Shown here piece by piece: positions 46,807 to 46,963 of a stretch of 64,000 nucleotides of DNA; within the stretch, counting starts at the first letter, position 1; each line of letters opens with the position of its first letter. The DNA is taken from NCBI GenBank assembly GCA_964016885.1, contig OZ024759.1, positions 19,034,001 through 19,098,000 on the forward strand, given 5' to 3'. The notes beneath the pieces were generated by a model, which did no database searches, was not told the DNA's origin, and was given only the letters and a program-made list of their open reading frames with translations. The DNA comes from Eledone cirrhosa. Lineage: Eukaryota. The translations under genes and the position numbers were made by a program.

Positions 46807-46963
46807 TACGATATTAAACAAATGGAAACTATATTTATAAAACCATATTTATTTCGTTATATATATTTCTGGGATATCATATTAAAAATATGGTATCCCA
46901 GAAATATATATAACGAAATAAATATGGTTTTATAAATATAGTTTCCATTTGTTTAATATCGTA
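46807..46963. mobile_element. Near-perfect palindrome centred on an HHR stem II
   Basis: Both arms read GAAA-TATATA-TA-acgaaataaatatg; homologous to the 3' half of the 37400 HHR. Confidence 0.78.

Follow-up and report, generated by a model that had tools for sequence, protein, structure and literature searches.

The window, a 64,000-nt stretch of Eledone cirrhosa DNA (contig OZ024759.1, positions 19,034,001 to 19,098,000), contains a 245-bp insertion that ends at 47051 and has (TA)n at both ends (Table 1). It consists of a palindrome followed by an 88-nt tail (46964-47051) on the right arm alone; because this family tail has no mirror on the left, the palindrome is only part of the insertion. 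An earlier note on this DNA had described a near-perfect 157-bp palindrome, and its two arms (46807-46883 and 46887-46963) indeed measure 77 nt each and are 99% complementary across a 3-nt AAA loop, with 46877 T against 46893 G as the sole mismatch. Folded as RNA, 46807-46956 (150 nt) forms a single hairpin with an energy of -95.8 kcal/mol (z -24.8), a stability that none of 200 shuffles reached. The sequence GAAA-TATATA-TA-ACGAAATAAATATG, said to be carried by both arms, was found at 46901-46926 and as a mirror copy on the left arm.

The palindrome had also been said to lack CUGAUGA. A motif scan agrees, finding no CTGANGA...GAAA core within it, and the left arm stops at least 4 nt before the core. 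The same note's reading of the arms as two substrate halves does not hold, since a transcript of one strand contains one substrate half and its antisense. Ribozyme activity is not predicted for the insertion, which would be a dead stub. As for the proposed match to the hammerhead motif at 37400-37459, the two are related, but that motif is too divergent to be the direct parent (Table 1).

Table 1. Positions of the insertion, its target-site flanks and the related hammerhead-like motif in the window
Feature	Position	Strand	Remarks
(TA)n array, left target-site side	46660..46806	.	With CTTA interruptions; from sequence
Tail-less inverted arm	46807..46896	-	Equals young copy L021 (antisense) over 90/90 nt, up to a first mismatch at 46897; runs from fixed internal end X through stem I 3' strand, cleavage site and stem III, then further inward through GAAA, stem II 3' strand, loop and most of stem II 5' strand
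Hammerhead stem II region holding the axis	46871..46899	.	AAA loop 46884-46886 in antisense orientation
Junction	46894..46896	.	TAT fits both arms exactly; part of a 10-nt pairing that includes a single G-T wobble
Sense arm up to X	46894..46963	+	GAAA 46901-46904, stem III TATATA 46905-46910, then stem I 3' strand
Predicted cleavage site	46911-46912	+	TA; no core to act on it
Tail	46964..47051	+	88 nt (parent 89 nt; one A lost); this side only
(TA)n array, right target-site side	47052..47088	.	From sequence
Divergent hammerhead-like motif, related subfamily	37400..37459	+	CTGATGA 37408-37414, GAAA 37440-37443; only 77.6% over 98 nt

The left arm equals the parent antisense to 46896 and the right arm the parent sense from 46894, so that the two join at 46894-46896 and the axis lies, as had been claimed, in the stem II hairpin. 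The mismatch between 46877 and 46893 is the parent's own imperfect stem II mismatch, and no substitution separates the arms of this copy. It was the tail-less arm that copied the loop and most of the stem II 5' strand. Had a cDNA primed at the tail end folded back on itself, the loop on this strand would read TTT, whereas it reads AAA; a cDNA primed at X and folding back would read into (TA)n and not into the tail. Both considerations call for a second cDNA, and we infer from this sequence that a single self-copying cDNA cannot make the 245-bp insertion. Local snap-back of the tail-less cDNA is possible as the joining step at this locus.

That the palindrome is a fold-back read or an assembly artefact is scarcely credible. 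None of the contigs from four runs at 100% likeness covers 46898 onwards, which leaves the junction unspanned, and three contig runs and one RAD-seq run gave no piece across it; these gaps are uninformative, the sample possibly being another individual. Against an artefact, the mirror halts exactly at the fixed end X with the flanks not mirrored, the arm mismatch reproduces that of the parent stem II, and the same join occurs on other contigs with their own subfamily alleles. A like architecture is common to 1215 short inversions in the genome.

The parent element

The parent is a very abundant young Penelope-like element (PLE) with a 3.7-kb unit in a 3.0-Gb host genome, where its 25-nt end motif has 3953 exact matches. 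Its full-length 3.7-kb tandem unit (L264-L266) runs in the order putative start, hammerhead, X, tail, ORF and 3' UTR. In full-length copies, the counterpart of the 88-nt tail is 5' UTR that ends ~50 nt before the first ATG of the ORF. Parent copies encode in one frame the YRDD and FLDV motifs of the reverse transcriptase (RT) followed by IYNC...YVGST, the single-ORF arrangement of EN+ PLEs; this assignment was made by reading the motifs by eye. The layout is likewise that of EN+ PLEs, with partial tandems, a pLTR, an inverted arm and a one-sided tail (191/194). Among 7992 scored, 402 homologs reached E<=1e-20, and the best named one came from Argonauta. A Pfam scan returned 0 families for 2/2 proteins.

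The protein carries DKT (KSDKTNNLY) rather than DKG, together with the cysteine features of the Hydra clade, namely a CxCX5C linker (CNCRDRSKC), CDLCAEE and CCRH (by eye against PMC8557442). CCHH is absent, a single Cys lies inside the GIY-YIG core, and the N-terminal motif is RWR where the Hydra clade has RWK, a conservative change. Targeting of (TA)n is as in the Hydra clade, a dinucleotide run being present at the tail-less end of 182 of 194 sampled inversions. In the parts of PMC8557442 available, the clade has in common with this element DKT, the CxCX5C linker, CxxC and CxH around E and N, the absence of CCHH, a C-terminal GIY-YIG, a hammerhead and (TA)n targets; the element differs from it in RWR for RWK and in a unit of 3.7 kb against generally <3 kb. 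By its motifs, the parent appears to match the Hydra-clade description. The Naiad clade was rejected because the nuclease is C-terminal.

The hammerhead motif of this young family combines CUGANGA, a 13-bp imperfect stem II, GAAA, a palindromic stem III and a UA site. Read as a pattern, it has both cores, stems I and II, the palindromic stem III and an NUH site, and would be a type I minimal hammerhead. Core-complete motifs numbered 286 in the loci examined, with overlapping loci counted more than once. Two narrow Rfam scans, which included this motif and that at 37400, gave no hammerhead family, and a scan of the whole window brought up, among the matches listed (150 of 503), nothing but microRNA matches driven by repeats. 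Single-strand folding of the parent motif did not yield the hammerhead fold. As DNA, stem II is the most stable local hairpin, at -6.2 to -6.9 kcal/mol compared with -4.5 or weaker in other sampled windows.

Self-propagating, non-autonomous spread of the 157-bp unit, in the manner of a MITE or retrozyme, was also rejected. The 157-bp copies carry differing subfamily alleles while the two arms of each agree, so each copy arose anew.

Inverted insertions across the genome

Inversions running from X to X with exact ends numbered 58 at 34-123 bp, 105 at 124-204 bp, 352 at 205-314 bp, 700 at 315-434 bp and 50 at 435-534 bp, which corresponds to 0.6, 1.3, 3.2, 5.8 and 0.5 inversions per nt of length. 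From the first four classes, 194 were mapped (45/58, 49/105, 50/352 and 50/700), taken as the first matches in genome order and not as random draws; in the shortest class, 5 listed loci were left out and one duplicated pair was counted once. The tail lies on exactly one side in 191 of the 194, on neither side in 3 and on both in 0, a pattern with p ~1e-52 under an independent 50:50 choice. Genome-wide, searches whose patterns overlap slightly found 2119 tail ends and 2569 tail-less ends. Tails at both ends were seen once, in a 5.9-kb unit (L264:466-6405), and the asymmetry is therefore not absolute in long insertions.

The arms commonly differ in length. The tail-less arm is longer by >10 nt in 109/191 inversions and the tail arm in 27/191, the remaining 55/191 being near-equal. 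This split implies that one cDNA folding back cannot make most inversions and, because the longer arm can be either, that either arm may hold sequence absent from the other. The same counts bear on the antisense RNA self-priming of Arkhipova (2013), as set out in the available text of PMC3846280, in which the 3' end of an antisense RNA folds back and primes the sense arm and tail, with the other end trimmed at X. A tail-less arm that is longer or equal is what this predicts, and 164/191 inversions comply; the AAA loop at the present locus, the concordance of the arms and the microhomology excess reported below fit it too. Self-priming is nevertheless improbable: the tail arm is the longer in the 27 cases above, a sense loop occurs at 3/9 stem II joins, and nothing in the scheme gives a reason for arms to stop at a sense-strand Inr-like motif. 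In addition, the portion of PMC11167929 available reports sense RNA being copied from nicked DNA in vitro.

Arm ends were placed by d, the distance inward from the fixed end X, in which stem II occupies d65-93. Weighted arm ends per nt (tail-less arm, tail arm) were 2.6 and 4.8 at d36-64, 3.3 and 4.0 in stem II, 2.3 and 3.7 at d94-122, 4.5 and 3.7 at d123-151, 11.0 and 13.8 at d152-180, 24.7 and 12.6 at d181-195, and 0.9 and 0.4 at d196-300, the last range being partly cut by the 434-bp limit. Ends cluster at d165-194, ~75–100 nt upstream of stem II, and drop ~7- to 10-fold beyond. The ceiling is a step between C and ACTA ~190 nt from X, within an Inr-like TCACT found in 5/5 subfamily copies compared. 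An Inr-like TCACT is also described in the pLTR of Pen2a_Av, in the text available from PMC3846280. The ceiling at TCACT is likely to be the RNA 5' end. A cap-derived C was not evident there, C following 3/11 arms that end at the ceiling. No TATA box is claimed, as TATATAA begins at -23 in a single subfamily, with no evident counterpart in the other copies compared. Hammerhead cleavage was rejected as the source of arm ends, because arms pass the predicted cleavage site and d36-64 shows no excess.

Stem II itself has the arm-end density of its neighbours, 3-7 times below that of d152-195. Near-equal axes fall in stem II in 2.0% of short inversions (95% interval 1.1-3.1) and at d160-195 in 24% (16-32), so the expected enrichment of inversion axes at stem II failed when tested genome-wide. 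Exact stem II joins were found at 5 sites with a strict pattern and at 9 with a relaxed one, the latter an upper bound, against ~2,100–2,600 ends of each type. These joins arose independently on other contigs, each with its own subfamily alleles. They make up at least 4 of the 105 inversions of 124-204 bp, where ~0.3 would be expected, ~10-fold above a uniform null, and leaving out the copy in this window gives P ~0.003-0.004 for 3 or more. Such an excess is expected of a long inverted repeat, because junction overlaps are enriched in general: an overlap of >=4 nt was present at 59/126 junctions and at 93/378 simulated ones (p 6e-6). A weaker hairpin at d160-181 was used in the same way (L243, L249). 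The stem II join is thus rare and not the usual route of the family to inverted ends.

The earlier note had proposed, as a specific mechanism for the inverted ends of PLEs, that nascent cDNA folds back on stem II and serves as its own template. The part of this proposal that stands is local: the junction does lie in stem II, the element is a PLE and the core is lost. The exact placing of the axis on the most stable local DNA hairpin and the excess of such joins at 124-204 bp also speak for it. As a general route to inverted ends, however, it is very unlikely and is refuted by the junction map, given the at most 9 sites genome-wide and the small share of axes in stem II. The inverted arm has sequence that the tail arm lacks in the 109 inversions noted above, and at this locus the loop polarity and the one-sided tail demand a second template. 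Moreover, both loop polarities occur at stem II, the loop coming from the tail-less arm at 5 of the 9 sites, from the tail arm at 3 and being unclear at 1.

Both polarities are predicted if the short palindromes are collapsed forms of a ~360-bp palindrome, in which stem II, present as a direct repeat in both arms, lost the centre between its copies by slippage. Long palindromes are unstable, and a longer form does exist (L007). Post-insertion collapse is nonetheless rather unlikely. Arm-to-arm substitutions amount to 0.54% at 124-204 bp compared with 0.95% at 315-434 bp (1.2%, on few bases, in the shortest class), so the short inversions are not older than the long ones, and the present copy has none. 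The original two-ended insertion would, in any case, still need a mechanism of its own.

Arms of the same inversion agree in subfamily alleles in 67/68 cases, compared with 35% from a random pool, and the sole exception (L002) is an inherited stem II mismatch. Such agreement would equally follow from snap-back, or if the subfamilies had been active in different periods. Extra bases are present at 68/194 junctions, which indicates that joining is often more complex than simple annealing. At four junctions (L261, L175, L088 and L151), short repeated copies of element sequence suggest that the template slipped repeatedly as the ends were joined.

Probable twin priming at two fixed sites

What is observed are end products, namely the architecture, two outer ends that are fixed, a tail on one side, and the position and distribution of junctions; the mechanism is read back from them. 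The insertion is a stub of a Hydra-motif PLE, the palindrome being its inverted part, and was probably made by twin priming at two fixed positions on the RNA, separated by 89 nt. Reverse transcription of the element RNA would be primed from each of the two ends of a cut (TA)n target, one cDNA beginning at X and yielding the tail-less arm, the other beginning at the tail end and yielding the tail-bearing arm, with strand displacement probably allowing both to use the same RNA. The majority of cDNAs would run off the RNA 5' end ~190 nt from X, producing the common palindromes near 350-380 bp. At this locus, synthesis of the tail-less cDNA would have ended within the stem II 5' strand, at a length of 87-90 nt, with a 3' end complementary to the other strand of stem II, both in itself and in the second cDNA; pairing would then have closed the insertion. 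Snap-back followed by pairing with the second cDNA would leave a sequence identical to that left by direct annealing of the two cDNAs, and stem II would act solely as an inverted repeat.

A more specific form of this proposal, about as probable as its negation, is that the RT-nuclease acts as a dimer on the 5' UTR of a single RNA, priming one target strand at the tail end and the opposite strand at X and hardly ever using one site for both, that palindromic stubs are run-off to the transcription start, and that stem II serves as an incidental annealing site. If so, a single coordinated twin-priming reaction would account for the inverted pLTR, the one-sided tail and the junction palindromes together.

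In L1 twin priming, associated with Ostertag and Kazazian in 2001, the second primer reportedly anneals at internal positions that vary, and the arms have little overlap. In the present family, by contrast, neither site varies and the arms do overlap, so that palindromes result. Common to both, as far as the available text of bioRxiv 10.1101/2024.12.14.628481 goes, are the priming of two cDNAs by two target ends and their head-to-head joining at microhomology.

The layout of an inverted arm with a one-sided tail is itself already published, and the excerpts of PMC8557442 and PMC3846280 call the origin of inverted pLTRs and one-sided tails in PLEs open. EN+ PLE insertions described in these excerpts, including Pen2a_Av (PMC3846280), resemble the present ones in head-to-head arms, a tail at one end, an Inr-like TCACT, junction palindromes and an AT-rich target. 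In contrast to the 30-40 nt given there, the tail here is 89 nt, more than twice as long. The present insertion further differs from those published in comprising only a pLTR fragment and in being joined within hammerhead stem II. The same excerpts contain neither a genome-wide junction map nor a count of tail asymmetry.

In vitro, according to the portion of PMC11167929 available, a PLE protein nicks each of the two target strands and extends it, starting at two RNA sites that bound a tail, with hammerhead cleavage dispensable; the protein is predicted to be dimeric. This system, PAc Poseidon, is thus like the present family in its two start sites bounding a tail just downstream of the hammerhead, uncleaved RNA as template, AT-rich targets and the extension of both strands (PMC11167929). 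The sites differ in location, lying in the 5' UTR and 89 nt apart here and in the ORF in PAc Poseidon. That portion of the paper does not tie the two start sites to an inverted arm and, as the same start sites are used on both strands, coordinated use of two different sites is not shown in its assay.

The open-access literature searched yielded no PLE junction map and no twin-priming account of inverted pLTRs, and the accessible parts of bioRxiv 10.64898/2026.07.22.740005 and PMC13282606 contain nothing on PLE junctions or twin priming. The outer ends, tail asymmetry, arm-length bias and ceiling can all be counted across >1,200 insertions that are short and young, and they offer direct predictions for the in vitro PLE system. 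The stem II palindrome that was flagged is an uncommon exception, and what merits follow-up is the set of counts for the whole family.

Neighbouring repeats

Other repeats in the window also stand head to head. At 47330-47771, a second inverted insertion, of another repeat family, has arms at 47384-47476 and 47631-47723 that are 99% complementary. Its asymmetric spacer holds a CTGAAGA...GAAA hairpin (47582-47610), its ends lie in TA-rich repeats, and it is possibly another PLE. Two ends of this family face each other across (TA)n at 56520-56681, forming a long hairpin whose scores against microRNA models are below thresholds among the matches listed (150 of 503). A third family is represented by two similar hammerhead-like cores at 42585-42626 (+) and 27411-27370 (-). 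Elsewhere in the genome, a copy of the studied family is adjoined by another PLE-like element (L103:5782-9950, minus strand), which has both an RT and a GIY-YIG domain of the CxxC type. Just left of the TA array that precedes the palindrome, 46250-46617 holds two inverted copies of an abundant repeat, which we take to be SINE-like.
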